64,000 nucleotides of DNA. Source: Amoebophrya sp. A120 (lineage: Eukaryota; Protista; Dinoflagellata). The notes beneath the pieces are model-generated. The model did no database searches, was not told the DNA's origin, and saw only the letters and a list, made by a program, of their open reading frames with translations. Below are positions 4,201 to 46,646 of this stretch, one piece after another (position 1 is the first letter of the stretch; each line of letters opens with the position of its first letter). The stretch covers positions 2,733,303 through 2,797,302 of the forward strand of contig CAJINV010000008.1 of the NCBI GenBank assembly GCA_905178155.1, in the 5' to 3' direction. A program made the position numbers and the translations under genes.

Positions 4201-6648
4201 GGACTACAAGTTCTTGACTGGTGCACATCATTGGCCCCCATACAAGCACAACTAGGGCCGCCGCCTCGCCAAGCATGTAAAGTAAAAACGAACATGAACA
4301 TCTTCATGTCGTCTTAGATAGCGGCGCTAAGGACCTTGGAGCACGCCTAAGCCATCTTCAAATTATGATTGCGCTTTCTTTCTTGTCTCGTTTTATCATG
4401 TTTTGCTGCCTCTCAAAGAGAATTCTGCAGTGTGAATGCGATTTCAACACTGATCCATTGCTGCAATATGCAAAAACAAAAGAAACGCCTGCACGCAAAA
4501 AACGAAAGAAACGATCGAATTTCGCTCTGCGTTCGTTCGTTTGCAACTGGAAAAATGGAACCTCGGTGGTAATTAGAATTACACTCACACACGACTTTCA
4601 CATTTTATACAAGGCTGGTAGAAATATTACATCACAAATCGTGCCTCCTGCTTGCTCTCCTTGGCCGAGGTGGGAAATCAGTTCATGCACGTGTACGTCT
4701 TGATACAACGGGGAAAGTGGTTTCCGTCAGATGGGATCCCGCCCGCGATTGCGGTCCTCGATGCCCACTGCTCTGGCGCCAACGAAGTCAAATGAAGGTA
4801 CGTCTGCAGCGCAGTGACTGAGGAGGCATCGTCGTGATCTTTTGTTGACCTTCCATCCTCATGCGAAAAAGCTTCCCTCTCTTGGGCGGGAGCAGCGGCG
4901 GTGTGGTTTTCCGAGCTCTGCGACTGCAGCTCCGACACGCGTACGGTTTTTTGCAGTGCTAGCGCACCACTGCCGGAGTTCTCCGAGATCTGCTGCGACG
5001 TCGAGACGGACGCTGCTTCCTGCCGCGGCGGCGCCGCGGCGGGGTTCCGCTCACGGTCTTCTCGCAAGTACGAAGAAGAACGAGCGCTTCTGTCCGGCGG
5101 TGGGTGCTTGATTTCGAAGTCTCCCGCAACCTGCTGCAGGTGCGAAACGGGCCAGGCGTGCGAAAGGGGGGGACCAAATTCCAAGTTTTCTGACGAGCCC
5201 CGCTGTAGATGCGAAACCCCCACAGCTCCCTGATCCAGGTGTCGTGGCGGGGCCGTGAAGATTTCGGAACCCGCAGCAACATTCTGGAGGTGCGAAGGCG
5301 GCCCTGCTTCCTGCAGCGGCGTTGCGGCTTCTCTCGCTTGCTGCAGGCGCGAAGGTAGCTCTGCTTTCCGCTGCTGTGGGCGAGCGGGGTCAGCAACTTG
5401 CTGGAGGTGCGAAGAAGGCTCACGTTCGTCCAGCGCCGTCAGTGGCGCGGGCTCAGCAACGTGCTGAACCCGCGAGGGCGATTCGGCTTCCAATACCGTC
5501 GGGGGCGCCGCTTCAGCAAATTGCGGTGGGTGCGTAGACGGCTCGGCATCCCGCGCCGGCGGAGGCAGGGTTTCCCCAACTTGCTGCAGATGCGAAGACG
5601 GCTTGGCTGCCCCTGGCGGCGGGGGCGCGGCTTCCCCACCTTGCAGATACAGCGGGGCCGGGGGCGCGTGTTCAGCAGCTTTCTGCAGATGCGAATACGG
5701 CTCGGCTCCCAGCGGGGCTGGGGGTGCGGATTCGCCAGCTTGTTGCAGATGCGAAGACGGCTTGGCTTCCATTGGAGCCGGGGGTGCGGATTCGCCAGCT
5801 TGTTGCAGATGCGAAGACGGGCTGCTTACCAGCGTGAGCTGCAACGAGGCATCAGCAACCTGATGCTGCAGACGCGGAGCCGGCTCAGCTTGCAGGGGCA
5901 ACGGGGCTTCAGCAGATCGATGCCCGAGGTGCGAAGACGACCCATCTTCCACCGGCGGCGGTAACGGCCCTTCAACAGGCCGATGCTCCAGTTGCGAAGA
6001 CGGCTCAGGTTCCCGCGGCCACGGCAACGGAGCATCAGCGGCCCGAAGCTGCTGCAGGAGCGAAGGCGCTTCGGGCTCTTGCGGCTGCACCGAGCCCTGC
6101 GCTTCATCTTGCTCGTGGTCTTGTGGGTGCGGCGAGGATGTTTCGGCTTCAACAGCCTCGTCCCGGCGGTCTTGTTGAGAGGGAGCGCCAGTACTACCCG
6201 GACGGGACTCATTCATGTCCGGCACCTCGTCCGCGACGCGACCGAAACCGCGATCCGCCACGGCCGGCACCTCCGCTTCCTCCAGAAACGAGGGCGCGGG
6301 TAACGTGGTCCGAGACGCTGGCTCGACGGAACTGGGTTCCTCCGACTGACCGCCCGTGATGGCGGACACCCGGGACCACAAGGAACTGGGGTCGGGCAAA
6401 AGGTCCGCCCAAAGCCATTTGCGCTCGTTTCCCGGGCGCGGCGCCAGAAACCCCGCCCGCTCGGCGTGCACCGGCCCGCTCGCCGTAGCGCCTACGTACA
6501 AAATGACGCACCGCCCTGAAGTAATCATGCGCATGACCTCAGCGACTCGGCAAGTTCTTCCCGATACTTCTTTCGTAAGAAAGTACCTCCCGCAGAGCGT
6601 CTTCTCGAGGACGCAAAATTCGTCGGATGAAGTCGTCAGGGTTTTCAA
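1253..6648 (-). CDS. Divergent Ser/Thr protein kinase with N-terminal tandem repeats and Pro-rich tail (multi-exon; 5' end and some junctions uncertain)
   Basis: Gly-rich loop GGQGSFGTVR in ORF 3626-4144. LNDLKPANM, FFDFGLS and YSPKTDWFA in ORF 1253-3220. A GT-AG intron at 4144-4706 joins repeat ORF 4678-6648 in frame (FPR-L-PEDG). Junctions in 3230-3630 are unresolved. Confidence 0.6.
5140..6020 (-). repeat. Coding tandem repeat, unit about 60 bp / 20 aa (core PSSHLQQ)
   Basis: Recurrent tgcagatgcgaagacgg core; near-identical 60-bp units at about 5660-5820; more than 12 SHLQ-like units in the translation. Confidence 0.85.
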
Positions 6649-8592: not shown

Positions 8593-11500
8593 TCAATCGA
8601 GCTCGTCGAGCTCGTTTGCGGTGGTTACTTTCTTTCCTCCGCCGCCGCCCGCGCCGCGGGCCTTCGGGCCGGTCTGCTGCCGGCCCCGCGGGTTGAAACT
8701 GAACCCCGGCTTGCTTGGTTGCTCGGCTCTTCCGTCCTCGTCGTTTTCCACCGTGGTGCTCAGCTCTTCCTCCTCGATTTCCATGCGCGTGCTGCTCTGC
8801 CCGCTCTTCGCGCCTCCTGTGGAAGTTCCGCGGCTTTTCTTGCTACTACTTCCCGTGCTAGTAGTACTAGAGCTGCTACTACTCGCCGAAGAAGCTGCCG
8901 CCGGCTCTCCGCCCGCTGCTTCCAGGATTTCCTGGACAGCGGCCCGTTCCTCCGAGCCCAGCCGCGACATCATAGTTTCGATGTCCTGCATGGAGGGCAG
9001 CTTTTGCTTGGCCGCGCCCGCGGAACTTGTGTGATCCGCCACGGTGCCTGACTGCGTCTGCGAGGTGGGATTGTCGAAAACAATGGCTTCATCGTCCCAC
9101 ACGTCGCCATAGCTCTGCTTCTTCTTCTCCTCCACTTTGCTCGCTTTGGTCTTAGAGTAATCGGAATGCCACCCTGGTAATCATTTTGGTGCGCGAAGCG
9201 ATTTCAAATGATGTATCATAGAGACTATTCGGAGAAGAAAAATACATGCGAAAGAAGCAATCGTCAACATGGGTCTATGAGTACTCTGCGCTCCTGTCAA
9301 GTTACGTACCAGGATAGATAAGGGCTGCAATACGAAGATGAGGGGTCACTGGCGATGGCGAAGAAGATTGACTGCAGGTATTCGTATTCTTTTTCAAAAC
9401 ACACACTGTTATTCTACAATAGAGCGTACTTGAGGGAATGCTTTCCGAGGAGGACGAAGAGGTTCCCGCACCCGATCCGTTGCTCTTGGTGGAGGCACGA
9501 CTGTCCGCGTCGGCGTAGGCTTTCTGCAGCTCTGGGTCGTACAGCCCTTTGCCCTGCTCTTTCTCGAGCTTCAGCACCTTCAGCTGCTTATCACACACAA
9601 AATTTCCCCTAGCACTTCTATTTGATGCAATCATGCGCTCATTTACAAATCACCGCGCGATCTCGTCGTCCCCAGGAACAGGATCATCCTACGGAAGACA
9701 TAAACGAGAAATTTTCTGCCTTTTTCGCGGTTTCAAATTTGCATGACGGGTGTGGGAACCTTCTCCTGTGTGATACGCTTTCTCCTTTGAGTCGTCCTTC
9801 AGCAGCTCCTTGTTCTCTTCTTCCCATCCCATGATGCTCCGCCGGCACCGGCGCTCCCACGTGTCCACAGGATCTGTGTCTTCATCGTACTTGTCATTGG
9901 CCTATGCATTGAAAAACTGTCATGATCACTGTCGTGATGGTTCTACGTACGTTATAATCCGCGGACGGGAAAAGAACAAACTGTCAATCGTTCGGATGCA
10001 CACTGACTCAGCTCCAGTCTTACGCGATACGCAGTGCGTATCACGCGCGCATGTTGCACATACACTCACTTACTACTACCGCTGTGCCGCTGCAGGTTTC
10101 GACTTCACGTGCCGATGTCGACGCTTACTTCTGACTACTTTAGTCTTCACGCGAGGACCACATCACTGGATTTGCACTGCATATGGCCATCATTGCGCGG
10201 CGCTCCCGACCCTGCCGCTTCGCCTCGTCGCACATGCGCTTAAAGGATTCCATCTGCTTGCGATGCGCGTCTCGCTCCTCTTCCTTGTGCAGCTTGCGCT
10301 CCGCCCGCTCTGCTTCTAAGCCGCCCTGCACGAAAGCTTCCGAAAATCGTCGCTCGTCCTTGAAAACAGGTCGGTCATCCAGGTACGACAGGTTCGGCAG
10401 CGCAGCAATCACCTGGGAAAGGACAGAGTTGTGAGTGCAATCATGAGCAATTTCCGTCAGTGTTCTATTCGGAGTGGACAACTTCTGCATCTGCCGTAAC
10501 ACAATCGCACGCGCGGAAATAGTAGTTGGTGGTTAGCCGTTTTTCTTGACGTCACCATCATCAGAAATGTTTTGTTTTTGTTTGAAGCTGGGTTGCGTAA
10601 TCGGGTTCTTCCACATCGATAATCATGACTGAAGAAACCTTACCCTCTTTCGGTAGGATTTGATGGCGGACACGACGGGATTTCCCTTCAAGTACAGCAC
10701 CTTCAACTCCGGCATTTTTTCGAGGACCTCCTGCACCAGTTCGGGCTCTTTGATCTTGTAAGCTATCACGTGCAAACCAGTTGTGCCAGCAGTACATTGC
10801 ACGTCTTTTCATTGCGAGGGGAGAGACCATGTCCTCGGTCCTCTTTAACTCTCCGATGACCCCTCGACCTGAATGGCTCCTTATTCCACCAGAGAAGATG
10901 CGCGAAAAAATGCAATTCTGTATTCTATGACGGGTCGTGGTCGAAGAATCCGTCTACCATCCCGTCCCATTCAGGACAGAGCAGATTGTTTGCAGCGACG
11001 ACTCTTCGCTCTAGCGCGGTCAATGATGCATCAAATGGCGCAGCAGCGGCATGCATGGCTGCAGAACAAAGGGGACAAAATCGCGTGCGAATAGATACTA
11101 CTGCACCGAATATCCGATTGATACTTCCTTGGAGGTCCAGGACTGCAATTTTGCTTCCCACCAGGTCTCGCACGTCGTCCAGGCCTGCAACGTAATTTTT
11201 TCAACAAACCTAAGAAATGCTAGGATGCACTACGCGTTCGGATCTAAGATGCGCGTTATTTACGTTTTTTCTCAACAGCTAGCCCGCCGGGCCAAATCTT
11301 GTTTCAGCCTGAGAACCACTAACTCACATCTGCATATCATCATCATCTATCCTGCGTGGGGCACTGCGCATATTATTGTAGCGACGACTTGGATAGTACG
11401 CAAATTTTACCATTGTGCCCAAGCTGGTTGTTGGCAATCTGCAGGGTTGACAGGTTCGGTGGCAGGTTTTCGATTTTGTAAATGAAGTTGTTGCAACAGT

Positions 11501-12453
11501 TCAGGGTCTGTAGGTCCTGCATGTGCGCGATCCCGTCAATAGATTTAAGACCTGAGATGGGTTATTTTTTCTTTTCGCCGCAGATACCCCCATGGTGCTG
11601 GACTCTTTCTCTACGCTGCAAGCGATGCGAAGTCTATACATAGCCCTATGCAGAAACACGCCTTTCACACGGCCTATGAAATGATCAAGCAAGAAGCGTC
11701 GTCGAACCGTTTTGTTTTTTGTCCATGCCGCGATGGCGAAAAATGCAACGAACTAGACCAGGTAAAAAATGTATAATGCTATACAGTTCTCGTGTATGAA
11801 CAGAGACCGGAGTTTGGTCATGGACTCCAGATTTTCGATTTTCTCGATCGCGTTTGATTCCAGGTAAAGTGCCCGCATCTCCGTGAATTCCTCCAAGTTC
11901 TCGATTTTCGTGTAGCCGCCGAAATGAAGGTAGATTTTTTCGTTTAGCCCCGGCGTCGAGTAATAGAGTCGTCGATCGCTCCGCAAGATCTTCTTGATCT
12001 TGTCTCTCGTCAGTTGTGCACCACCCAGGGTCGGCGTATGAAATTAAAACAACGCTTGAAAGTCACCGACAGCAGGGAAAAATTATTCCGGAATGTGACT
12101 AGCAAAACGCGCTGTCGTTTGACTACGCAGGCAGAACCAGTCGTTGTGTGAAAAATTCATGCTATTCGTCAGAGCATGCAGTAGTCCGATCGTGAGAGCT
12201 TTCGTTCTCCTGGAATGTCCTTCTGACGGGCAGTCACATTGCACATAAGGTGTCATTGCTTTGTTTTTTTTGATTCCCGTTCCATCAACTACAGTCTTTG
12301 TGACTTTATTCCACCGTTGCGTTTTCCATAATCTCGGTCAGCGTACCACTTTGCGCGCCGTTTGGCGTCGTCTTCTGCCATCTTCTCCTCGATCGGCCGC
12401 CGGCGCTCCATCACGCTCTGATGGAGCGCCATATCCAAATCCGTGGCCGCCAT
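8593..12453 (-). CDS. DNAAF1: Dynein axonemal assembly factor 1 (ODA7/LRRC50)-like LRR protein, multi-exon
   Basis: YSTPGLNEKIYLHFGGYTKIENLEEF, LRR units, LKVLYLKGNPVV..YRKRVIAALPNLSYLDDRPVFKDERR (LRR cap typical of ODA7). Exons joined by GT-AG introns plus four TAT..ATA elements. In-frame ATGs at 12453 and 12381. Confidence 0.85.
9589..9775. mobile_element. Introner/MITE-like non-canonical intron in DNAAF1
   Basis: Ends TATCACACA..TGTGTGATA; flanks AAGCG/AGCAG on the coding strand; removal of element+5 nt gives SKEKA-LKVLK. Confidence 0.8.
9903..10183. mobile_element. Introner/MITE-like non-canonical intron in DNAAF1
   Basis: TATGCA..TGCATA ends, imperfect TIR of about 22 bp, perfect TSD GGCCA; removal gives AMMA-NDKY. 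Confidence 0.9.
10764..11123. mobile_element. Degenerate introner in DNAAF1
   Basis: TATCA..TGATA ends, degenerate TIR, flanks GGAAG/GCTTA; removal of 10760-11124 restores LRR motif LDLQGNKI. Confidence 0.75.
12037..12330. mobile_element. Degenerate introner in DNAAF1 (first intron)
   Basis: TATG..CATA ends; TIR tatggaaaacgcaacggtggaataaagtcac vs tatgaaattaaaacaacgcttgaaagtcac; TSD decayed (GAGAT/CGCCG) but element+5 removal is in frame (WYADR(D/E)-TLGGAQLTRDKI). Confidence 0.7.
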
Positions 12454-13841
12454 TTTGGCTACCTGTGTTCCCGATCACTTCCGACCGAAACCAAAAATCC
12501 GAGCGAAATTCGCACGAAAAAGTCCTGGTTGAGATCGCGGTTCGCAGAATTCAATACTAGTCTGTGACCAATGTCGTTGAGCAGCGATGACCTTATTGTC
12601 GTGCAGCAAGCTGCTCCCATCAGGTCGAAATCACGTGCAAACAAGCGACAATGCTACGATCTGCATTTCATTTCACACGCAGCACTCAAAAACCCTCACC
12701 GGACCAATAGCCTCCGAAGTAGCCTCGCCGACTGTTCGGGCATCAAATCTGGGGTAGACGTACCTCGAGGAACGTCTCTGTGCATGCGTTCCTTCATCTC
12801 AGCTCACACACTCGCTCGCTCCGCAACAGCGACCATCCTCACGTAACGGTTTCGAAACTGGAGGAACACGGTTCTTGGGTTTACCCAGACAGCAAGCCTT
12901 CGTGATCGACAGTCAGCCCTGAGCAATTTTCTATATCTAGAGCAGCCCGTTCCATTTGGTTTTCAGCGCACACGCGCACCTCTGCAGCATCTGTGTAACC
13001 TCACTCTGTCGCATGTGCGAAGTAGAGATCCGCCCATTCGTAGCATTGGGAGTCACATCTCTGCGGTTTCACCACGGTTGCAAGAAAGGAAAGGCATTTG
13101 TACTGAAGCGCTCGGTCTAGTCCTTTCTCGGAGGCAATGCACTTGGACTAGGCGCCTAGTAGTCGCAGACTCTCACCAAAAACAGTGCCAAAGTTATAAA
13201 TCAGGCTTTCCGGGGGTGTGAATCAATATCAAAACTCCGACCAACTACGACAGAGGGGTAATTTCCTGTCGCGACAGATAGCGATCCGTCGAGGACCGGT
13301 GTTCTTTCCCTTTGGATTCAGATTCCGTCGAAGAAACAACCCGACAGAGTGAAGCACCTGTCCTAGGAAATAAGAAGCCGCTAGAGGTCTTTCGCCGTGG
13401 CGGTATTACATTGGTGTGGGCGTTTAAAACAAACTTCTGATCGTGCGAGGAAGTCCGAGAGAAACGACAGTGGTGCGACGATCCGATGCTGTATCGAATA
13501 CAAGTCGCACGGTATTGTGTTTCTCAGCCAATAGCGTAGAATCACAATCAGGAATTAAAGTTTATGTTGATAAAGCAGGCTGGTTAATAGTGGAGAAACA
13601 AGTGTAGTAAAGCAAATAGTTTTAAAACTGAACCACATATAAAAATCTGAGCGAAAAGAGCCCTGACCGGACTGTCTTGATTGTAAAAAGTGAGGATAAA
13701 ATTTCTGATGGAACTAAAGCGCAGCAACTGACTCGTACCCGAAAGTCGTCGTCTTCGCGCTAGACGAAATAGGAATTGTTACAACATCAAGCACGATTAT
13801 AGCTACTGAACTAACCACAACACGAATAAATGCTGCAGCAT

Positions 13842-14717
<876 letters not shown>

Positions 14718-15850: not shown

Positions 15851-18800
15851 TTACTTGAACATCCGGCTCAAGAAGCTGCGTTTTTTCTTCAGCGCCTTTG
15901 CTTCCTTCACGCTGACGATAGGATATCCCGGGCAAATAGATGCGCACTCAACCCGCCCTCTTAGTGTAACTTTTTTTGCTCCTTCGATAACAGCCCTGCT
16001 CTCTCCCGTATCTTCTCGAGTCGTGTAGTATTTTTTTCCTAGTGCCGCCCAGAAAACATCTGCGCAACTGACCGACCTCATAGTGCACAGCGTTTGTCTG
16101 TAATAGCAAGGACTTTAAGCAGGCATGATCATGAATGTTTGCTTTTCCTTTTACAACGACAAAATAAATCTCCGGTAACGCCGAGTGCGCATCCAAATTT
16201 CCATTGAATAGCCCCTCATCGGCCAACCATGACGAAGCGAGGACGAACCCATTGACTGATTTGTCCGCTGCGGAGTACAGTTTCTGTGCGTATTCCAGTG
16301 GGAACTCCTGCTGAAGGAGCGCTAAAAACTCCTCGCCAGAAGGTGTCGACGAGAAAATTGATAACATTTGCAGTTCGCTCTCGTCACATGAGTTACTTAC
16401 TTTATGATTTACCTAGCGCGTTGGAAGGGGACGCGCGGATTCGGAGCCAGCGTAAAAGCTCTGGGGCTTCCCTGAACCGCTGGGTTTGCACTGCCAGAAT
16501 CGTACATGTTGACATAAATGCCTTCGTCGTCGCAGACCCGGTTCCAAAAAAGTAAGTGAGTAAAAGCGGCTGTGTGCATATCATCACATAATTCGGCTCA
16601 CGAATTGCAAACATTTGCCTTGCGGCCGCTTTGGATAAAAATTGGCTCAGTCAGCCGTTTGTGCAGCAGCTCCGCTACTTTCTTGTCCACTTGCAATCCA
16701 ACCGTCTCCGCTTCCCCGACTTGTTGAACCTGGTATTTCAGCATGTTGTACAATTTGCGGTCACAACGAAGAAATTATGCAGGAATGATGAAGCAGTCGA
16801 ATTTAACACACCGGCGCATCATCGAAACAACAATATAGACTTGCACATTATGTACCTCTGCAGCCCACTGGTCGACCTCGTACTGTCCTTCTAGGAGTCG
16901 AACCATCAGCCCTGTGGCCTCTGCCTCCGAGAGGTAGAGCGGTAGCAGCATGGACAGACACTTGCTCCACTCCGGTATGCTCCAAAAGTTCAGCAGGATC
17001 TTGGTCAGTTTCGGCACGTCCAGGGCGCAATTGCGCAACTTCACCACCAGCCGCCGACACACCAGGTTGTAGTGCTCCGGCGTCAGGTCTACCGGCTGCT
17101 GCAATTTGTCCGTCGCTCTCCTGGGGTGAATCTGAATGTCACCTTCTGATGTCTTGTCGACCAGCGAAATCAAAAAGTCCACCTGATGGCTTGTCAGTCC
17201 CTGGGGAATATGGAGCGGAAATGCCATAGCAGTTCTCTTCTCGCAGATCGCTGACTGGTATACGACTATTTTATTTCCGACCTGCATTATTTACAACCAC
17301 GCGGCGCAGAATGTAATTCATCCGGCACACGACAATGCTCGACGCACAGATTGCATGAACAGTGCGCTCTGCTTCATGTAGAGGTCCCTCCGCAAACAGA
17401 TGACAGATGTTGCTGCTGCGCATTTCAAACTTGGATAATCGATCTGGCAAAGCTTGGCCCGAAAGTCCGACTCTGGCACAGTGGATTTGTTTTTTGTCGT
17501 CGGGCTTTTGTCTCGAAACAGTGGCTCCGGGTCTTGCAGCAGATCTTGCATCACCTGAAGAGTCGACTCAAACACAGTGTACGTCGTTTGCTTTCGCTAT
17601 ACCGCTTGGAGAAGCATTTTTGTGCCGTAATGCTGCCAGCGTCTCCATTCGAGTCGTGAACTAGAACTAGTACTGACGCAGCAACCAAGTACAGACGACT
17701 TCTCTATAGATACCTTGCCCCAGCTCGGCACGGCGTTGAGTATGGTTTCGTCTGCCATCAAGAGGTGCGTTTCGAATTCGTCGATGTTCACCTGTCCCCC
17801 GCTCTCCTCGCTGACCAGCATGGCGCAACACTGGTGCAGCTCGGCCCGGGACACCCCAAAGGGAATGTCGCTGCACAAGTCGATGAAGGCGTAGGGGTTT
17901 ACGTTCTGGTTCTGCTGGAAGTACACCTGCCACACGTCCTTCAGCGTACAGTGCACGAACTTCTTTTTCAGCCGCGCCCAAATCACCCGCAGGTTCTCCG
18001 CTGTCATCGCGCGAAACGGCGTTTCGGGGGGCTTCCCCAGTTTCGAGATGCTGCCCGAGCGGCTGTTCACCGTGCTCTGCGGATTTATGCTGCTCGGCCC
18101 CCCGCCCCCGGGCGGCACGGGGATCCCGAGCGGGGCGAGTGGCGGCGCGCCGCGGCACGTGAAAAACTGCGTGTGGTTGTTGGCGTTTGTCCCCGGGCTT
18201 CCGCCGGGCGTGGAATTCGTGAAGTTCAAGCTCTGCTGTGCCTGCAGCGCGGTGGACGTGAAGGGGTAACACTCCACCTTCGTTTGGAACACCTGCACGA
18301 AGTCCCGGTAGTCCACGTCCCCCACCAGGTTTTTCTCGCTCGACATCAACGCCAGCATCACATTCCGCTGCGTGTAATTTTTTGGAAAAGGTACTAATTC
18401 ATTGTGCAACTCACGACCTCCTGCAGATGCGGAAACTGGTGGCTTAAACAGTGTGAGCCTCACTACAGTAAACCCTACCGTCACTTTGCACGGCACCCAG
18501 ATTGTTGTACAAGTACGTACCTCGTTGTTCTGATCTTGCAGGGTGTGCGCGATGGATATTTTGAACGCGTCGGCCGTCACTACGCCGCGACGCTCCGGGT
18601 CTGCGGCCGTGCACCTCTCAAACAGCATTTGCAATTTTTCTGGGTCAAACAGATCCCGGACCGAAGCATCCACCCGCTTCGCGAGGGGACCCGGAGCGGT
18701 GTTTAGCTGCTCTGCGAAGTGAAACAGGGGAATCCTGTGGGTATAGTTTTTTCGGGGCAATCAATGGCTGTTCACAAAATTCATTCACATCCAGCAAAAA

Positions 18801-21246
18801 CGTCTAACATCTCAGTTCGGTTGTTATCGAGCTCTCACTTCGTACTACTCCTGAAACGAAAGCAATCCACGTACCCACTTCCTGCAGCCCCGCCGGGTGC
18901 ATTGGCGTCGGCCATTGTGCTGGCCGCCCCGGATGCGAAACAGGCTACCAGAAAGTTGATCTCCGGGCTGGAGAGGGCGCAGTTGAGCGCCTGCAGGGCC
19001 TGCACGAACTCCGGGGTCTGGAAAATGCCGTCGCCCTTCTTGTCGAAGGAGGCGAACGTGGAGATCCAGTTAGACTTGCGGGTCACCAATATCGCCCGTA
19101 TCCTGGCCATCAACACCTCGAATAGCTCTTGATTCTCCGCCGGGATCTGCAGCGCCGTAGTGCTAGGCCGCGCAACCTGGACAGGTGGCGACGAGGGCGG
19201 GGGTGGTGGGGGGCCCGGCCTCTTGGAACCGGGCGGCGGCGGACCCGGTGGTGCTGAGACTGACAGTGGTTTTGCACCCGGTGGGGGAGGCGGCGGTCTG
19301 CGGAAAAAAAATTTTCTTGCGTCAAGTCATTGTGTGCGTCGACCGATCGTCGCTCCACCTACCGCTAGAATACAGCAAACATAGCGCTGTGGCTGTGTGC
19401 AGACCTCCTCTGGCAGCCGCCGGGAAATCTCGACACAGAAGCTGCACCTATTTCAAAACAAACTGGCATCAAACACAAAAAAGACATTTCTGCACTTTAT
19501 TGCCGCCTCGGATTTTGGTTTTCCGCGAACGGGACTCAGGGAGATGAACGGGTCGTTGTCCGGCGGCAGTTGCAGCCTCTCCGCGGTCTCGCTCTATCCA
19601 AGAAAAAAACATTGTAGGTGTAACTTTTTTGGAGGAACAGCATTAGAAATTTGTCTGGCATGACAGCAAAAACCTGCCATGCGCAGATAGTACGTGAAAA
19701 CGCCCTTTAATGGACCCTACGACGCATGCCAAGCATGACAGACGCAATCATCTTGCATGTTGCGCATCACAAATTTACACTAACAGCGTTTTTTTCTTGG
19801 ATACGCTCACGTAGGGGTCCAGTAATATTTCCGTGGTTTCCGGCCGCGCCTCCGCAGATTTGGTCAGGAGTCGCTTGATCAGGTCCATCAAGCGCGTGCT
19901 GTACTGATCTGGGATGGGGTCGTAGTGCTCGGAGACGATTTTGTACACCAACCCGAGCAGGGAGGAGGACTCGAAGGCGTGCTTCAACATACACAGCTCG
20001 TACAGCATATCACACAGAAAAAAGCTGGCAGGGCATGTTTGTAATGCAAAAATAAATACACTGAAAAATCTGCATTGCATATCCGAAACAGCATGCTATG
20101 GGGCCACCCATGGCGAGTTTTTCTGTGTATTTGTTTTTGCATTACAAATATGCCCTACCAGCTGTTTTCTCTGGGATACAGCACGCACCCCAGCGCCCAC
20201 ACGTCCGACTTCCAGTTGTAGGGCTCGCTCCGGCACACCTCGGGCGACATGTAGTAGGGCGTGCCCACCACCGTGACCGCCGCCTCGCGCGTCCCGTCCA
20301 GCACCCGGGAAATCCCGAAGTCCCCCAGCTTCACGTTGTAGTCCTGCAACGGCGGCGTGGCCGCGTTATCGACAACCCCGGCCAGCGCCGGGCTGTTGCT
20401 GCCGTCCAGGAATATGTTCGAGGTTTTCAGGTCGCGGTGCAGAATCTTCTGTCGGTGGATGTAGTTCAGCGCGTGCAGCAGCTGCGTGAACCAGCGCATG
20501 ATCACCACCTCCTCCAGCTGCTCCTTCTTCTTCGCGCAGGACTTTATCAACTTCCGCAGATCGCCGTGCGGGGCGTACTCCATCACGATGACCAAAATGT
20601 TCAAATTGAAGGTGAGCGAGAAACTTTCGATGTACCCGTATTGTGAGGAAATATCCCCCCACCCCATATCAAAACGAAGTTTCTGATGCTGGATTTGAGT
20701 ACACAAATCAGGTTTGTCTTGCAGAAAGTGCTTGGCGGCAATTTCTGAGCCTGTGTGGGTATGCAGAAGGCTAGCAATTACGCATGGAGCACAGGTTTGC
20801 AGTAGCCGAAAGCGCATGACAGATTGGCTTTGGAATGCGCCACATGGCTCCTATTACCCTATATGCAAGACAAAGATGATTTGTGGCCACAAATCAGCAT
20901 CACAAATTTCCATTTTGATATGGGGAGGGGGGATTTTTCCTTTTGATAACCCGATGATGTGCGGGTGCCGCATCTGCTGCAGCAGCTGGACCTCCTGCTG
21001 CGCCAGCTTCTGATCGTGCTCGTTGAGCGCGTCCACCTGCACCGACTTGGCGACCAGTTGCACGTTCGGCTCCCCGCAGCGGCTGACCAGCTGCGCGATG
21101 CCGTACTGTCCGCGGCCAATCACGGAAACGCGGTTGTAGCCGTACTCCGACAGGTCCGGCCCCGAGTCCTTCTTCTTGGTTGCCGGGTCCGCTGGGTTGT
21201 TGTTCTGGCCGTTGGCATTCGCCAACTTCATAATCTCCTCCGCCAT
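15851..21246 (-). CDS. NIMA-related (NEK) kinase followed by a Pro-rich linker and several EF-hand-like repeats; multi-exon, 3' part less certain
   Basis: IGRGQYG, VAK, HPHIIGYIESF, ILHRDLKTSNIFL, VKLGDFGISRVL, VGTPYYMSPEVC, KSDVWALGCVLYELC. Then FASFDKKGDGIFQTPEF, GDVDYRDF, GQVNIDEF and LVDKTSEGDI. Confidence 0.8.
17209..17437. mobile_element. Degenerate introner in the NEK gene
   Basis: TAT..ATA ends, residual TIR (gaaatgc..agcag), flanks TCGAT/TTCCC; element+5 removal gives LCQID-QGLTSHQVDFL. Confidence 0.55.
19595..19803. mobile_element. Introner in the NEK gene
   Basis: TIR tatccaagaaaaaaac extending imperfectly to about 30 bp; perfect TSD GAGCG; removal gives DPYVS-ETAERL. Confidence 0.92.
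20008..20178. mobile_element. Introner in NEK kinase subdomain IX
   Basis: TIR of about 60 bp with few mismatches; perfect TSD TGCTG; removal restores WALGCVLYELC. Confidence 0.95.
20639..20948. mobile_element. Introner, family A (related to 30669-30980), in the NEK gene
   Basis: Imperfect TIR of about 85 bp (tatcaaaaggaaaaatcccccctccccatatc...); perfect TSD CGGGT; removal restores HPHIIGYIESF. Confidence 0.95.
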
Positions 21247-25000: not shown

Positions 25001-27566
25001 CACCTTCTGGTTGATGTCCTACTTTCTTCCCGACCGAGGAAGCGAGTATGTGGTGGATGCGCACGAAGTCCAGTCGTCGGGCCTGCTTGCTGCCCGGGTG
25101 GTTTCGCTTGCGCGGGGTCGCAAGGCCACCGGCGTCGGCGAAAGCAAATGGGTCAAATGCTCCTCCTGGTCCGCCGTTCGTCTCTTCCATCCCCGTAGAG
25201 CTGCTCCTCGTCGTGTCGTCATAGTACAAATCGGCTTTGCACTTCGTTTCGTACTCCAAAAAATCGATCAAATTGAAGAACGGCAAGTACCCCCGGCGAA
25301 TCCACTCATACAGATCCACGGTGACGATGGGGCGGTTTGCCAGGACCGACGCAAGCACGAAGATCGCCAAGTCCGCACACCAGAACCAGTGAATGAAAAC
25401 CGGAAGGTTTTCGGTGTCGGGGAAATAAGAAGAGGTAACGTGCTTATTTTTCAGCGCGCCTCTGCTCCCAGTTGCGCCCGCAGCTGTTCTTGAACGAGCA
25501 GGCACTTTAGAGGTGGAGGAAGCAGGGTTGTTTCCACCAGGCGGAATGTTGTCGGTGTCGTCCTCGATCGCGGCGGCAACTTCAGCAGTTCTTGTCGTTG
25601 CTTTTTTACTGCCTTTCCTACTACTTCGCCGAGCGCTTTTGCTTTTTCTCCCCGAGGGAACAATCGCATCTGCCTCCGTTGGAGGTCTATTTCCCTTTCT
25701 GCGCATGTCGATACCGAAAAATGTTTTCTGCACGCTTTCTTGCCACGATCGGTCGTGGAAGGTTGAGTGTTCCTCGTTTTGGTCCTGCTCGTCGTCTTCA
25801 CTGAGGAGATAGTTTTCTTCCTGAGAGTCTTCCTCCGGCTCCGAATCGTGATCCACAAACCGCACAGATCGCGAATTCTTATCCGACTGTTTATGCGGTT
25901 CTCTATGATTCTTCTTTGCACGATCTCCACGAGACTCTGTCAATCCGGGAATGATATCTTCTTGGGACACGCTTTGATTGATGGTATCGGTAATGGCTCG
26001 CAGATGTTGACCTTCTCCACCCGGAGTCGCCGCTGCACTTCTATCGTCGTGTATTTCGTCTTTATCCATCTCTTCTCCTTCGTCCGACGAACTGTGCGTT
26101 TCCCAGACCCCGTTCTTAATCTTTTTTGACGACGCACGATTCCTCCCTCTCAAGCGCTCCTTCGTGTTGCTTCGCCAGCACTGCGCGAACGTTACACTCC
26201 CGAACCCCGCCTCCCCGGGAAGGAACTGCGAGTCCAGTAACAGCAACGTGTTCAGCTCGCGCTGGTCAACCGGCTTCGTGCCGCCGGTCGCGCTACCACG
26301 GCCGAGACGCCTGTGCCGCTTCATCGCTTTCTTTTTCTTTTCCGCTGACTCGTTGCTCAGATCATTCGTCAGCTGCAGCTGCGAAGTTGTAGATTTTTTG
26401 TTGTTACTACCAGAACTCGTCTGCCCCCGCGATAATTTATTCAGATTCTGCAGCAGCGCATCCTCCTCCTCCTCGTCACTACTGCTTCCCTTCTCCTGCT
26501 CCACTAAACTTTCGGCCATTTCGTTCGTGTGCGCCCGAAACTCCGCCCACAGGTCCCGCACGAATTGGAGCACGGGCCGGTTCGCGATCAGGTGCTTCAG
26601 CGGGTTGAAGCTCGGCTGCGGATTTAAATTTCCAGCGGAACAAACCCCTTGCTCGTGCTTGGATTTCTTCTGCGAGGACCTCATTTCTGAGGATAATGAA
26701 CGTGGCGAGTCTCTTCTCCCGCCACGCCCCTCGCTATTACTACCGCTTTCGTCGTCAGTATTGTTGTTCAATATCTGACCTTGTTCTTTTACCGCTTGTT
26801 TCTCATAGCTTTTCCCTTTTCTCATCCCGCCCTCCCGCTCGTCGATCAGCCTCGCGTGCCGCACGAGCTCGCGCATCTGCGCCTGCAGAATGTCCTGCAT
26901 CAGGTCCAAAACACTCCTTTTTCGGCGACCTTCTGCAGACTCGTCCCAGTCCGGACCGTTTTTTTTCCTTTTCTTTCTCTTCAACCCGGTGATCTCGTCG
27001 TAGTCCCCGGCCTCGTCTTCCAGGTCCCGCAAATCCCGGTATCCTGAGTAAAAACGTACCCACACCAGAGTCAGGATGGGGAATCTGCTAGACAAATCAG
27101 CCAGCTTTGGTTGTTTGGCATGACAAGTTTGTCCGCGTAGTGTAGTGCTGTTTTAGCTAGTTTAGCAGCATTACAGATCTAGTATCTCGTGCTGATTGAA
27201 GCATGACAAATTTCAAAACCGCATTAGAAAATGCTTCTCATGGGGCTCCGCATGAGAAAAATTTTAAGCATGCAGAGTTGCATGACAACTATGGTGTGGG
27301 TACGTTTTTACTCAGGATACCCGGTCCAGCTGTGTCATCTGCGCCTCCTTCCGGGCCGCCGCATCCTTTTTGATCCGGATGGACACCACCTGCTGCTTCC
27401 GCCCGGTCACGTTCTCGCCCTGGTCCCCGATGTCCACCTCCCCAAACTGCTGGGTCAGCGCGTGGTTGATCACCCCGCATTGCCGACAGGTGAAGTGCCC
27501 GGAGTTAAAGTCCTGCACTAAATCCTCGGACCCACACTCCTCACACTCCATCGGCGCGCCCGACAT
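22092..27566 (-). CDS. TFIIB-family zinc-ribbon protein, most like RNA polymerase I initiation factor TAF1B/Rrn7 (2 exons, about 1730 aa)
   Basis: N-terminal CEECGS..FTCRQCG ribbon; internal PIVTVDLYEWIRRGYLPFFN resembling the Rrn7/TAF1B cyclin-fold motif; exons joined across element 27040-27319. Confidence 0.6.
27040..27319. mobile_element. Young introner in the TAF1B-like gene
   Basis: Perfect 28-bp TIR tatcctgagtaaaaacgtacccacacca; perfect TSD CCGGG; contains an in-frame stop; removal gives QLDR-DLRDLEDE. Confidence 0.97.
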
Positions 27567-30487: not shown

Positions 30488-32121
30488 CTACTGTCCTCCC
30501 AGCCCTTGCCCAGCGGCTCCGGCGAACTGGGCCGCCAGGGCCGGCGTGGCGCCCTCCTCGTAAAAGGAGCCTCCCGGGGTCTGGTCGTAGTAGCCCGATG
30601 GTGTCATGCCCGCCAAACTCGCGTCGTAGGGCGCTTTCAAGCCCTTGGGATCCTTTCCGTCGATCATGTATCGAAAGGAAAAATCCCCCCACCCCATACT
30701 CAAACTAGAGATTTGTGATGCAGATTTGTGGTCACAAATCAGCTTTGTCATGCTAGAAGGGAAAAGATGCGGACTGTAGTGCTGGTTGGCGTGGGAAAGC
30801 CTCGGATCTTCAGCATGACAGGGGGCAGCTGGAAGTGGGAAACAGCATGACAAATTGCCTGCAAACGAGGCCACAGCTGCGTCTCTTGGCCTTCTAGCAT
30901 TACAAGTCGATTTGTGTACTCAAATACAGCATCACAAATTTCGTTTTCGATATGGGGAGGGGGGATTTTTCCTTTTGATATGATGTATGGCGTCTTCATC
31001 TTGTCGTCCTTCCCATAGCCCAACTCCACCCCCGGGACGCCCCCGACCTGCGTCTTGGCACCCGAAGCGCCGGCCACCCGCTTGTGCGCGTTCATCTGCT
31101 CTTTCAGTTGCTTGTCCCCCAGCGGGATCACCCCACCCTCGCGGATCGTTGCCTTCTTCAACAGCTCGTCGAACTCCTTGTCCTCTTTTACCGCCATGCA
31201 GATCAGCCGCGGCGTGATGCGCGCCTTCTTGTTCTGCCCCGTCTGTTTGTTCACCGTGTTATTCCCCATCGCCACCTTGGCCCGGTTCCCCGCCAGCTCG
31301 CACAGCTCGGCGACCAGGTACTCCATCACGGCGGCGCAGAAGACCGCGGTGGTGCCGGACACGCGCGCGTTCGCCGACGCCCGGCTCTTCAGCCGATTGT
31401 GAATACGCGCGACCGGGAAAATCAGGTTCGCCTTCGCCGCGCGGGTCTTGGCAGACCCCTTCTTTTTCCCCTTCGACTTCGCCTCCTTGTTCTTCGCCTT
31501 CCCCAGCTTCGCCAGTTTGTCCTTCTGTTTTTTTTGTCAAGTCCGATGTGGGGAAGTTGTTTTTGTACAGCGGTTTTATTCCATACGAGATCATTTTGTT
31601 GTAGCTTGATAACTTATTCAAAAAGAAAAATGAGTCCGCACAGGCACGCTAATGCCAAAAAAAAAAGCAACTACATAGTACAAAGCATCTACCTTCGATT
31701 TCTTCTTTGCGTTGATGCCGATGGGAAGTTCTGAGAGGATGATTTTGTCCTTCTTCCCCTTGTCTTTTTTGTCCTTCATCTTGTCCAGCTTGTCGTACTT
31801 CATCATCTTGTCTTGCTGTATACAAAAGGAAAATCAAAACCGTGCCCTTTTGTTGATGCTATGCCAGTTCGATTTGCTCTTCATGCGCCGCTTTTACAGC
31901 GTGCGCTGTTTCTTATTAAGCAAGTAGTAGCTCAGATGTGTAGTGCAGATGTACCTATTAATCCTAATGCTAAGGCACAAATCATAACGGTGCTATTCAA
32001 CATGCAGAGAATCAACAATAGAGCGAGGTTTAATTTTTCGCAGTCGGTTATTGTCCATCTTGTTTTTGTCCACCGCCATCTTCTTTTTCTTCGTCGCCAT
32101 CTTCTTCTCTGCGTCCTCCAT
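30488..32121 (-). CDS. Atypical histone H2A variant with long Lys-rich N-tail and long C-tail (4 exons)
   Basis: TRAAKANLIFPVARIHNRLK..VSGTTAVFCAAVMEYLVAELCELAGN..RITPRLICMAVKEDKEFDELLKKATIREGGVIP. GT-AG intron at 31525-31692 and introner at 30669-30980; first intron boundaries ambiguous. Confidence 0.85.
30669..30980. mobile_element. Introner, family A, in the H2A gene
   Basis: Same TIR as 20639-20948; TSD CATCA/CATGA; removal gives KTPY(I/M)-IDGKDPKG. Confidence 0.93.
31813..32050. mobile_element. Possible old introner forming H2A intron 1
   Basis: Flanking GACAA direct repeat and degenerate TIR (aaacc..ct.ttgttgat.ct.tgc); ends no longer TAT/ATA; an in-frame GT-AG alternative also exists. 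Confidence 0.45.
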
Positions 32122-38250: not shown

Positions 38251-41200
38251 TTACATCAACCCGGCAAATGGGTCGTTATTTGTTCTTGGAAAGGGGGAGA
38301 ACTGGGAGTTCGCTTGGTTTTGATTATTCCCCATGTTCATCATAGGATTACCACTCGGATTCATGTTCATCATGGGATTTTGCTGCTGCTGTCCTCCACC
38401 TGGCATCATGCCCCCCATCGGGCTCATGTTCATCATGAGGTTGTTCGCGCCTCCACCCATTCCGCCCATCATCGGATTAACATTACCTGCTCCGCCTGCA
38501 GCACCTGGAAGCTGCATTCCCCCGGACGATGAGGTAGATGAATTCATTCCCCCTGTACTAGCGCTACCACCTGCGCTCCCCAACCCCGCGAACGGATCCC
38601 CCTGCATGTTCGCCATCCCGACCCACTGCGAACTGACGCCGGTCTTCTGCAAATCGAAGCTTTGCAACCCACCCGTCAACGTGCTCGAAGTCGCAGCGGA
38701 AGTCCCCGTCATCACTCCAGAGGAGTTGTAGAAACCCGGATCGTTTAGTTGCGCGAGGGGGTTGGCGCTACTAGTAGTGCCGGACATGTTAATACCACCG
38801 GCGCCGGTGGATGTTGTAGTCGTCGTCGTCCCCATCATAGACAGCAAGTCGTCCTGCCTCGCAGCGGAAGACGCTGCGGGCCCCGAACCTGGAATCGGCA
38901 GCTGCATAGGAATCGACGGATTACTCGGCGGCTTGCTAATCGGCATGGAACTCGTCGTGCTCACTGGCGGCCCGGATGTTGAAAACAAGTCCAGCATGTT
39001 GCTCGTCGACCCAGGGTTGGAATTATTCGACGTCGTGTTCATCATGTTTCCAAATCCATCATCCAGCAACGAGCCCCCACTGCCGGAGGTGCGGGAGCTC
39101 GTCTTCGCGAAATTGTTGCTGGTCGACGGAACAGTCGGGCCGCTGAGCAACAAGTCGAAATCGGACTTCGCGTCGGAGGAGGCTTTCGAGTTTGTCACGG
39201 TTGTACTCGCGGCGTTCGAGGACGTTGTGGCCCAGGGGTTATTGCTCGTAGTTCCGAAACCACCTCCTCCAGTCGGACCACCCGTTGGGGTCGCGCCCCC
39301 GAGCTCCGCCAGAAAATTGTCATCCGCGTCCGGTACTCGCGGCTTCGCGGTGGTCCCGCCTTCATTGGCGGTTAGCAGCCCCCCTGCCGAGCCCATTCCG
39401 CCGAGCGCGGCGTTCACGTCCGCACTGTTGTCCGTCCTCGTTGCGTACTCTTTTGAACGTGAGGTGTCCACTCGCTCCAGCAACTTGCGGCACACCTCCA
39501 TCTGTGTGCGGTACTGGTCCGCGGTGAGGGATTCCTCGGCGAGCAACGGGCACACCAAGGGCAAGATTTTCGTCGCGGTTTCGCGCGGCCCGAGAAACTT
39601 GCTCATGGCGTCGTAGGTAGAAAGCAGCACCATGCACAGCGCCGGCGCCCGCTCCATCTTCTGCACGCGCTCGCAGGCGGTCAGGATGGTCTCCAAAATG
39701 GTGGACCGATCAAACACCGCGAACATCGCGTTGATGCCCATCAAAATTTGCACCCGGGTATTACATGCAAAAATGTCTGGGTCTGGAAAGTTCCGAGGTT
39801 TGTCATGCAGTTTTTCCAAGCTCCACCAAGTCTGTATTGCAGGGCCTAGCATCACAGATTCTGCAGCCCCTTGGTGATGCCTATTCTGCATGAGAAATCA
39901 ATGCCCCGCCGGCATGGCTAGAAATGGGGGACTTTTGCAAGTCATGCAACAGAGATTTTTGTATGATCCGCAACACGCATCACAAGCTCGCATCCTTCCA
40001 GACCCAGACATTTTTGCAGTTGATACCGGGCCTTCAGCGTAGACTCGTTGCGCAGCAAAACGGCGAGCATGCGGGGCAGGATTTGGTCTTTGATGTGCCG
40101 GTACTCAAATTTCTCGTGCAGCTGCGGGATCTTTTCCAGAGCGGTCTGCGCGATCGTCGGCTCGGGAAGCTCGAGACAGCGAAGTAGAAAGGGGAGCAGA
40201 ATCTGGGAGGAAAGATTGGCTGTCATCATTCTTGAATGGGTCCGTCTGTCGTCGTGGGAAGATGAAACTTGTCTTTATGCAAAAAGGCTAGGACAAAAGG
40301 GAAAAAAGCATCAAGTTAGCTATACCGCGTTTGCCTCGCTGGTTGCGGTCAGCTGCATGATCAGATCCAAATTCCGAATCAAGTCCGTCACAGCTTCTAT
40401 CGGGATCTCCTTCGCCGAGAAAAGAGCGCGCATCCCTGGCCACACTTTCTCCTGTGATAATGTTCAGAAACGGCCTTATCAAATGCTTTCTGTTTCTGCT
40501 ATTCCTGCTGCTGGGTCGCACTCATACCAGACATCGGTACTGGAATAGCTTTGTAATATTTCCATGGCATAAAGTAGAAATACGTTCAATATGAGAACAT
40601 TTTCATGTAGACTTCGAACCTGAAACTGCTCTGGGGTGAGAAGATTCGGTCGCTTGAGGCACACCAGAATGCACTGCAGCACGTGACCGTACAAAGGCGG
40701 GTAGTTTAGAGCGCGGACCAGCTGGGGCAGAACCCTTTCGCGGAGCTGTTGTGATAAGTGGACAGAAAATAATCTGTGATGCGCCCTGCCCAAAAAGCAA
40801 CAGTTCCCTGAAAAAAATGTTTTTTGTCCTTTTCCCGAACAAATTTATGTTGAAAATGAAAAAGACAAAAACAACAAGGCAATCTCTACAATCCTATCCG
40901 CGGTCAACGCACTCGCCGGCTGCTCCAGCAGGTTCTTGAAGCCCTTCAGGAACTGTGCCTTCTGCGCATCGTCCTTTTCCGACAGAGTCTCTAAAAACCG
41001 CAAAGCCTTGATGTGGATGTCCTGAAAGAACTCCGATTGTAGAAAGGCGCTGATATCGATGCGGTGCTCCGGGTTCGGCGCAAGCATGCCACACAGGATG
41101 GAAACCAGCTCCGGTGGGACCTTGGCGTGCAGGTCCTTGAGTGGGAGAAGCTGCTGGAGCTTCGACTGGTGCCCATTCCTGTCGTACCGCCCGAGCTGGG

Positions 41201-43733: not shown

Positions 43734-46646
43734 TTACAGGAGGGTTTGCAAAGCCGCCGCCGTGATGCTGGTTCGACCGGTCCCCGGGCCCAGTCCGGGT
43801 GCACCTAGCCCCATCCGCCCCATTGGCGGCCCCGCCGCGACCATGGAAGTCCTGCCGGCGGAGCGGGGGGTGAGGACGGTGGGGGTCGTTCTCCCCCCGC
43901 TAGCGACCACCTGCTTCGCCTGGGTGGCCACGTTCGTGCTGGGAGCTGCCGTTTCGTCCGCATTCCGCTGCTGGCGGTACATCATGCGCCGCATGCGCTG
44001 CTCCTCGCGGTCCTGTTGCCGTTTGCCCCACTCGTCGTCATTATCCTCTCTCTCGCCGAAACAGAAGCAACAGCAATCGCTGCCGTACTTCTGTCGCAAA
44101 CACCAAATAACCACAGTCACAACCACCAGGCTCAGAACGGGTATGAGCACCAGCAAGGTCACGTTGGTCATGTTTCCGCAGGGGCCAACGTCCAGCTTCT
44201 CCACGCCAAAGCTATGGAAACGAAGGGTGGGAGGCGGAAGGAACAGGAAGTCGTTTTTTTCACCTTTGCGGACGTTCGTATTGAATATGAAACTAAATGC
44301 GACCACATTGCACGCTTGAGGCATAAGTGCGCGGCTGGAACTCAACGAAGCTGAAAAATACAGAGAGGTGACGTGCCACCTTTAAGTTTTTTCCTCACGG
44401 GGCGGCAAAAACAAGAACGGATTTCCGCCCGTCAAGTAATGCAAAAATTTGTCTTTCACCATCACCTCTTAGAAATGGTATGGTATCTTTTGAAGAAATG
44501 TCGACTATGCAAGAATATCGAAATTCTTCTCAAAAACCAATTAAGTATAGATTGTCAACTTCATCCTGCGACCCACTCATCGGTTTTTTACTATTTCATA
44601 AAAGCACGTGAGCACGTCTCTCCTGTCGACGGGGGTGCCCATGATGCCATTCGGCCCGAAGTACAGCACGCACGTGGGGTAACGGCTGCCTTCCGTCCTG
44701 TAAATTGAGAAGCCCAAACACGGCAGATCGTCGGTGATCACTTCCAGAATCTCCGCGGTCTCCTTGGTACAGTACGCTGCACACTCCTCCACGAAGACCT
44801 CTGGCTTCTCATCTCGGGCCGCCAAGAGAGAAGCAAGTTTGGCTTTCTCGAGGCGGTTGACGCTGTCCACAGTGTACCCGTGTACCTCCAACTCGTTGGC
44901 AATGTGCGGCAGCGCGTTGCGTATCAGCTGCGGGTCGGTCTGCAGATCGTCGGCGAGAGACTCGTGATAATCCGCGTCGAACGGGATGGCCGCGCCGAAA
45001 ATTTCTGTTGAGACAATTTTTGTATTTCGTAAAAATTGTAGTTGGGCAGGGTTTGATATTTTTATTTTGCATCAAAACTTCGAACCAAACTAGACGAGAC
45101 GCAGTTCTCTTTCCGATCATGTCGAATGAAAGATAGTATCAAAAAAAAATCTCAAGTCCTATACGGGAGGGATGTTCGGGATTTGCCGGCGTTGCGCCTA
45201 GCGGTGGATGTACGAAGGGGTCTTGCAGTTTTCCGATATCGAAAATGTAGTGGTTGGCGAAGTATGAAATGCAAAAATGTCTGGGTCTGGAATGTTGCCG
45301 GGTTTGTCATGCATATTTTGCATGACCCAGGATATCTGTAATGCGCGACCTAGCATCATACATTTTTAGAGGCTTCCTGATGTCTACTCCGCATGACAAA
45401 TCCCCCCCCCGCGTATCACGAACTAGACGCCTCTTGGTGGTCATGCAATACAGATTTTTTTAGAGTCCAAAGTTAGCATCACAAGTTCCAACCTTCCAGA
45501 CCCAAACATATTTGCATTTGATACGTAGTTCGAATCGCCTTGTCGTCCGTACCCGGACGGGCACACGAGGGACGTTACACTGTCAAACTGGAGAGTGCTG
45601 CGAGGTGCTTGTTCCTGTTCCTTAATGCTCTCCCGCCGGTGGAGTTCTTGTTCTATTAGCTCATCTTGGCGCCCAGAAATACTATTTTCCCGCATCTTTA
45701 TATCGAGAAAGGTTGTCGTGTTGGCGAGAAGGTGGTCTTCGTCTTGGTCTGTTGAAACCCTTGCTAGTCTACTTGTGGGCGTGCCGGTGTACCTCGAATG
45801 ATGAAGTTGTTTATCATCAGCAGCACTGGTTGATGGTGTGCTCTCTGTCACGACCAGAAGATCTGGCACAGGTAGCTCTTGCTCTGCGCTTGCTAACAGG
45901 AAGTCGCGCGGCCCTTCTGATTCGGCAACGGTTCCAAGGGTCCCTTCATATTTTTCTGCGATATTCCCGTGGTCTCCGCCTGTCTGATGAAACGACGAAG
46001 ACGCCGACTCATCGGCCGCGGCCGCGGGCACCAATCCCACTTCTACCACTTTCCGGTTCATTTCGCCAAGTTTCGTCTCCGCAGGGCTTGCTTCGACGTT
46101 CTCTGTAGTTGACGCCACGTATGAAGCCTCAGGCGTGCTGCCGTCTGTCGGCGCGCCGGCCTCTTCCGTGGAAAAGATCTGGTGTCGCAGAAGCGTTTCG
46201 CCGTCATGGTTACCACGATCTCTTTGGTGCATATAGGTACTTTTTCTGGCCGATTTTTTCGTACGTAATGTTGCCCTCTCCGAGTTCACCTCACCGCTGC
46301 TTTTCGTGTACAGATTGCTCGACGCCGCGGCCTGATCATCATTTCCGCTCGGAGATTCATTCTTGTTCACCGCACGCCTATGCTTGGATATCTTGACTTT
46401 CTCAACAACGGTCGTGTAGGCGATTGCAAAGTTGCTTCTGCTGGCGTCTTGCAACAGCAGGCAGATGCTCGCAAAGGTCAACCAGCTTCTTCTGGCCGGA
46501 ATCTCTGTAGCCAGAAGGGCCGCGCCATGCGGATTTCTGGCGGAATTGAAAATGTGGTAGAAGACCACAGGTGTCGCGGTCTTTCGGCTTCTAACCATCG
46601 TGTTCCCGGAGGGGTCTGGGGCGGCCGACTGGTGTAAAAGCCGCAT
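43734..46646 (-). CDS. PAN/Apple-like type I membrane protein, paralog 1 (4 exons)
   Basis: LVCPSGY...ECAAYC..LPCLGFSI..TCVLYF..DVLTC, then TM (LLVLIPVLSLVVVTVVIW) and CCCFC. Introners at 45263-45523 and 44213-44600; GT-AG intron at 45005-45164. Confidence 0.7.
44213..44600. mobile_element. Introner in PAN-like paralog 1
   Basis: TATG..CATA ends, degenerate TIR, perfect TSD GCTTT; removal gives DVLTCF-GVEKL. Confidence 0.85.
45263..45523. mobile_element. Introner, family B, in PAN-like paralog 1
   Basis: Aligns along its length with 39759-40025; TSD CTACG/CTTCG; removal gives GDSNY-ANHYIF. Confidence 0.93.

Follow-up and report, generated by a model that had tools for sequence, protein, structure and literature searches.

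The host gene and its introns

The focal intron interrupts a gene at 8593–12453 on the minus strand of the window, by which the whole 64-kb stretch of Amoebophrya A120 DNA analysed here is meant. The gene has nine exons and encodes a DNAAF1-like leucine-rich-repeat protein of 590 aa, as supported by LRR Pfam hits and by a homolog from Chromera (P0010) that is named Dynein assembly factor 1 homolog. Its exons, like those of two further genes in the window, were 100% identical to annotated A120 proteins (P0006 for the host gene, P0001 and P0016 for the other two). According to the exon map the host gene contains four GT-AG introns and four introns of a hairpin type (TAT...ATA).

Transcript evidence was obtained for the region 9300–14400 from the contigs of two runs, X1 and X2, which are two samples of one study and were treated as cDNA, given that introns are skipped in their contigs; the raw-read runs X9 and X10 gave 0 reads. 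Assembled contigs drop rare forms. The RNA behind X1 and X2 probably also underlies the annotated proteins, so that the two sources of evidence are not independent. Registers are written such that (1,4) denotes a cut one base before TAT and four bases after ATA.

Besides the focal intron, a second non-canonical intron with 0 slidable letters lies at 12033–12331 (minus strand, 299 nt, TT..CC). Its joint (12032/12332) was found in both X1 and X2 and corresponds to (1,4), and its flanks are identical at 0/5 positions. The initial annotation had predicted this register and the residue Glu for the element (at 12037), and both were borne out, Glu being present at the junction in P0006, P0007 and the A25 protein P0008. 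The other two hairpin-type introns of the gene, also on the minus strand, are 9585–9776 (192 nt, contig joint 9583/9776), for which the RNA permits only (1,4) or (0,5), and 9899–10184 (286 nt, contig joint 9897/10184), which has a perfect 5-bp duplication (GGCCA), is fully slidable and therefore carries no information on the register. The remaining four contig joints in the region 9300–14400 were GT-AG.

Sequence and cut position of the focal intron

The focal intron (10760–11124, minus strand, 365 nt) begins with GT and ends with TT. Read along the minus strand, the upstream flank GGAAG (11128–11124) is followed by TAT at 11123, by ATA ending at 10764 and by the downstream flank GCTTA (10763–10759). 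The TAT...ATA element core (10764–11123, 360 nt) has a terminal 5-bp stem, TATCA/TGATA, with predicted pair probabilities of 0.46–0.88, outside which the arms have diverged. The upstream flank, which comprises four exonic bases and the first intron base, may represent a decayed target duplication; it is identical at 1/5 positions to the downstream flank, which comprises four intronic bases and the first exon base.

The sequence and our translations agree with the diverged flanks and the alternative products described in the initial annotation. When all in-frame registers were translated, LDLQGNKI, with Asn at the junction, resulted from (1,4) only; (0,5) gave LDLQGSKI (Ser), and the GT-AG option (1,1), which would use the in-frame AG at 10764–10763 with its G inside the GCTTA flank, gave LDLQGTYKI. 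The contigs of X1 and X2 join 10759 to 11125, skip 365 letters and leave 0 slidable letters. The mapping had flagged this joint as 'between: not known', which was resolved by the lengths in X1 record 2, where 177 letters (505–681) equal the exons of 118 + 59 nt, with no extra letters at the joint. The annotated protein P0006 is compatible with a single cut here. The proposed (1,4) cut, GT..TT and non-slidable, is thus confirmed. The proposed bypassing of a nearby canonical AG was seen as well: the assembled joint skips to 10759, and use of the in-frame AG three bases upstream of the acceptor is absent as an assembled product, in contigs from which rare forms may have been dropped. A product made with this AG would keep the reading frame, so its absence is not explained by nonsense decay.

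The Asn at the junction, which had been put forward as fitting the LRR consensus, is present in 7/7 aligned proteins. Of 79 distant metagenome relatives, 76 have Asn and three Cys, and the alignment around the residue contains a gap in 0/79; neither Ser nor an additional residue therefore fits. These relatives were distant DNAAF1 relatives, the only ones recovered by a second metagenome scan after a first scan had found no relative, and they served as a measure of residue conservation, not as empty-site alleles. From the conserved Gly-Asn, the original target would have been GGAAA, in which case all four departures from it would sit at positions that are intronic under (1,4).

The overall fold of the focal intron was no better than that of shuffled sequences (z −0.24), and its end pairing was equalled by 6 of 30 interior shuffles. 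An Rfam search of the 64-kb window returned no match, and no copy of the focal element was found among the 20 largest of the 30 repeat families in the window. With RNA-supported ends other than GT-AG, the intron is a non-canonical A120 intron and not a canonical U2 GT-AG intron. A strict introner criterion asks for an inverted repeat of 8–20 nt starting with TAT and a direct repeat of 3–5 nt at the boundaries; the focal intron falls short of both, and its five matching arm bases also lie below the cut of our arm scan, whereas the younger copies at 19803 and 27319 have such an inverted repeat. Judged from its sequence, the focal intron is likely a decayed copy of an introner-type element.

TAT...ATA elements in the window

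Sixteen elements of the TAT...ATA type were gathered by a scan and by eye, a collection that is not exhaustive. In the arm scan a score of 15 corresponded to chance (14 found, 10–17 in shuffles) and a score of 17 was above chance (11 found, 0–2 in shuffles); the scan misses both non-slidable introns. Perfect 5-bp duplications flank 7/16 elements, and three more match at 4/5 positions. Under (1,4) the first intron base would be G in eight, T in five and A in three of the 16 elements, and none would end in AG. The second terminal pair was predicted with a probability of at least 0.85 in 12/16 elements and of 0.0 at the equivalent positions in 12/12 GT-AG introns, and terminal pairing was predicted even in two elements with almost fully decayed duplications. 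At 12033–12331 the observed terminal pairing was reached by 0/30 interior shuffles. Four of the 16 elements have no predicted terminal pairs, including 31815–32051, which is spliced according to the annotated protein. Among the 12 canonical GT-AG introns, A stands at +3 in ten and the start is GTAT in four. The flanks of the 16 elements mostly begin with C or G and often end in G. This may reflect a target preference, under which many introns would start with GT by chance.

Two of the introns lie in a gene for a histone H2A-like protein of 303 aa (P0016; 30491–32121, minus strand) that is unusual in its long lysine-rich N-terminus and its C-terminal extension. At the hairpin intron 30665–30981 (minus strand, 317 nt) the annotated protein is compatible with an offset of 1 or 0 but not of 2–5. 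The Ile predicted at this element (at 30669) is present in the annotated protein, but offset 0 accounts for it as well as offset 1 does. The non-canonical intron 31815–32051 (minus strand, 237 nt), known from the same annotated protein, has a left arm that starts with TAA; it is cut four or five bases after ATA, with offsets 2–5 ruled out, and although no terminal pairs were predicted, a long inner stem was predicted to join its ends. This intron provides a natural test case for hairpin versus motif.

A kinase gene, which we take to be SCY1-like, contains six GT-AG introns and one hairpin intron that is seen in the annotated protein P0001 (39755–40026, minus strand, 272 nt); the latter has a perfect duplication (CCCGG), is fully slidable and gives no register information.

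Further introns were predicted on the minus strand. Two of them would be (1,4) introns: 17205–17438 (TT..CC, flanks 1/5 identical), called from sequence, and 48658–49077 (GT..CG), called from sequence and fold, whose left arm reads TAC instead of TAT. The predicted junction would give Asp (GAC) at the former and His at the latter, with a pyrimidine as first exon base in both. Three putative hairpin introns with perfect 5-bp duplications lie at 19591–20949 in a protein kinase gene (cores 19595–19803, 20008–20178 and 20639–20948), one with identical 16-nt arms and a perfect duplication (CCGGG) at 27036–27320, two at 44209–45524 (cores 44213–44600 and 45263–45523) and one with flanks identical at 4/5 positions at 57072–57461.

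Two pairs of elements, 20639–20948 with 30669–30980 and 39759–40025 with 45263–45523, are 79–94% identical at both ends, so that the introns 30665–30981 and 39755–40026 each share both ends with an element elsewhere. Both pairs sit in unrelated genes, a spread within one 64-kb window. In both pairs homology stops at TAT/ATA or one base beyond, and these limits between copies indicate that the mobile unit is the TAT...ATA element.

Strength of the register

Five introns are informative, namely the two non-slidable ones, both in the host gene, and three partly slidable ones (9585, 30665 and 31815), which fit offset 1 or 0 and exclude offsets 2–5. Under a random choice of each intron among the six seamless registers, agreement of all five with the (1,4) product has P = 0.001; the same test gave P = 0.006 without the focal intron and P = 0.009 for the three introns with RNA. 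The first exon base was a purine in 7/7 tested introns. We consider it probable that the focal intron is a non-canonical A120 intron cut at (1,4), likely an old copy of a transposon-like TAT...ATA element, whose ends are set by a fixed distance rather than by GT/AG.

The interpretation given in the initial annotation is largely supported. It had held that the acceptor is measured from the hairpin base and is independent of sequence. The same distance was found at both non-slidable introns; the hairpin base and the ATA motif are not separable as its reference point. The first and last intron bases do vary (GT..TT, TT..CC), whereas there is no variation in T at +2, in A at +3 or in ATA, and exons begin with a purine after the tested introns, as given above.

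Two published datasets were considered as genome-wide support and rejected. Junction sliding was simulated by applying the sliding rule of aligners. With perfect duplications the simulation placed seven of the top nine A120 motifs of Table S4 of Farhat 2021 (PMC7789003) within its own top 12; these motifs were reproduced equally well by a genuine (1,4) register when strand was disregarded. In that table, T stands at +2 in 9/9 top A120 motifs and A at −2 in 8/9. Dataset S2 of Gozashti (PMC12130899), in which the six largest families among 19 of 58 A120 rows have gt in 27%, at in 18%, ag in 29% and ac in 18% of 1817, was set aside likewise, since sliding of ambiguous junctions yielded the same pattern in simulation.

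Relation to known intron systems

Non-canonical introns with inverted repeats starting with TAT, direct repeats of 3–5 nt and a hairpin model have been described for A120 in a study of the Amoebophrya strains A120 and A25 (Farhat 2021, PMC7789003). There more than 60% of introns are non-canonical, and U1 snRNA was not found although most of the spliceosome proteins were. The focal intron belongs to the same organism and class and lies below the published definition of an 8–20 nt repeat plus a direct repeat. No fixed register is given in the legends and text of that paper, on which our comparison rests: according to the legend of Fig. 3 the position of the splice sites with respect to the hairpin varies and the border is unknown, and that of Fig. 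S23 gives a distance of 1–5 nt from the splice sites; the logos (Fig. 3, Figs S19–S25) may show more. Our literature search, with most subscription papers and theses beyond its reach, found no statement of a (1,4) register, and a bioRxiv preprint on dinoflagellate introners does not mention Amoebophrya. The (1,4) register appears new for A120 and its relatives, the intron class and the ruler principle being already known.

The closest parallel is the Euglena code 5'-N3CDG...CH'G-N5-6|R, which was proven using non-slidable introns and for which a MITE origin has been proposed (Nomura 2025, PMC12501133); Amoebophrya goes unmentioned in that article. Fixed spacers from a terminal motif to both cuts and no need for GT/AG are common to the two systems; the motif is paired in Euglena and predicted to pair in 12/16 A120 elements, and the first exon base R of the Euglena code matches the purine found at the tested A120 introns. 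They differ in the motif (TAT/ATA in A120, CAG/CTG in Euglena) and in the spacers (1 and 4 against 3 and 5–6), which in A120 sum to the duplication length; moreover, the lineages are unrelated. The focal intron works like the euglenid nonconventional class yet stands outside it (N1-TAT...ATA-N4 vs N3-CDG...CH'G-N5-6).

Introners that co-opt splice sites (Gozashti, PMC9860276, PMC12130899) are likewise transposons with TIR and TSD that become introns, often with mRNA length unchanged, and among the A120 families several carry the automatic label 'co-opt both' (PMC12130899). As far as these sources describe them, such introners carry or co-opt a recognisable donor or acceptor, whereas the A120 duplication provides no fixed letters and the AG is ignored. 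In the base-paired noncanonical introns of diplonemids (PMC12621601) the intron's 5' end pairs with its 3' end, as predicted here; their description, in the parts available, includes no fixed TIR/TSD register.

Amoebophrya has tens of thousands of non-GT-AG introns to excise, for which the earlier description gives no cut position. A fixed (1,4) register would reduce the varied end letters to one rule, would correct gene models and would explain the cost-free spread of elements through coding exons. It would be the second spacer-based splicing code, after that of Euglena, and is testable on existing RNA-seq.

Proposed mechanism and alternative explanations

We propose that insertion of an element duplicates 5 bp of the target, that its TAT and ATA ends would pair and bring the cut sites together, and that the machinery would then remove the element with 1 + 4 = 5 flanking bases, one duplication's worth. 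Since this sum equals the length of the duplication, a fresh insertion would be seamless and leave the mRNA unchanged at any target. The five intronic flank bases may drift afterwards, which would expose the register in old copies. As catalyst the organism's altered spliceosome is slightly favoured, with about an even chance, because the 5' end N-U-A-U resembles the ordinary donors of the genome. N-TAT may thus be a donor of relaxed sequence; that the first and last bases are free argues for the opposite.

A separate cut-and-join enzyme is a serious candidate for the catalyst, at somewhat under an even chance. Such a non-spliceosomal pathway, compatible with the same register and of the kind proposed for euglenids, would recognise the terminal stem, cut at fixed distances and release linear or circular full-length introns. 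Besides the Euglena precedent, the occurrence of G, T or A at +1, the complete absence of AG ends among the 16 elements and the bypassed in-frame AG argue for it. The spliceosome normally reads the donor region from +2 to +6, and a stem over these positions would mask it. Against it, U at +2 and A at +3 are as in canonical donors, and A120 keeps nearly all spliceosome proteins, with 15% of its canonical introns sharing the repeat layout (PMC7789003, text and legends).

A spliceosomal ruler anchored on the motif itself is possible but rather doubtful. N-TAT would then stand for GTAT as a donor with relaxed requirements, and counting from ATA (e.g. from a branch A located at −7 or at −5) would define the acceptor. 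In this view the hairpin would be a remnant of the transposon's inverted repeats. The canonical donors of the window are consistent with this in their frequent A at +3 and GTAT start, and both decayed left arms (TAA and TAC) retain T at +2 and A at +3. Splicing of 31815–32051 four or five bases after ATA, where no terminal pairs are predicted, points the same way. The pairing data speak against it: terminal pairing is predicted in most elements, including the two with nearly fully decayed duplications, and that of 12033–12331 was unmatched by its interior shuffles. The right arms, inspected by eye only, have no evident common branch-point consensus.

We regard it as unlikely that the register varies among elements or molecules, with (1,4) here a product of chance or of the survival of functional products: the sites are variable according to the earlier publication (PMC7789003, legends), annotated family boundaries are heterogeneous (in the 19 of 58 A120 rows; PMC12130899), the sample is small and contigs mask minor forms, but the random-register test still gave P = 0.006 without the focal site, slidable junctions alone generated the published heterogeneity in the simulation, and the AG product, being in frame, is not absent through nonsense decay.

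Returning to the fixed (1,4) register, a wider reading is tentative, and we would not expect it to hold in full: most A120 introns would follow a second splicing code, a letter-blind 1+4 ruler set by the paired TAT/ATA and matched to the 5-bp target duplication, which would make insertions silent. The machinery would be either non-spliceosomal or deeply rebuilt, and of an origin independent of that of Euglena. The TT-starting introns of A25 (T-TA) would then follow this register too, their first base being fixed. In Table S4 of PMC7789003 the top A25 motifs start with TT in 9/9 cases, and together with repeats starting with TTA these motifs put T at +2 and A at +3, which is also the arrangement in the N-TAT of A120.

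Other features of the window

The long kinase gene at 16413–21245 (minus strand) contains four hairpin-type introns, may have GC-AG introns close to 19520 and 16620, and continues, by eye, into an EF-hand-like region. At 5124–6090, 13 diverged repeats of 49 nt with a spacing of about 60 nt lie inside a long minus-strand ORF. The genes seen in the window are nearly all on the minus strand, as in the co-oriented clusters described for Amoebophrya.
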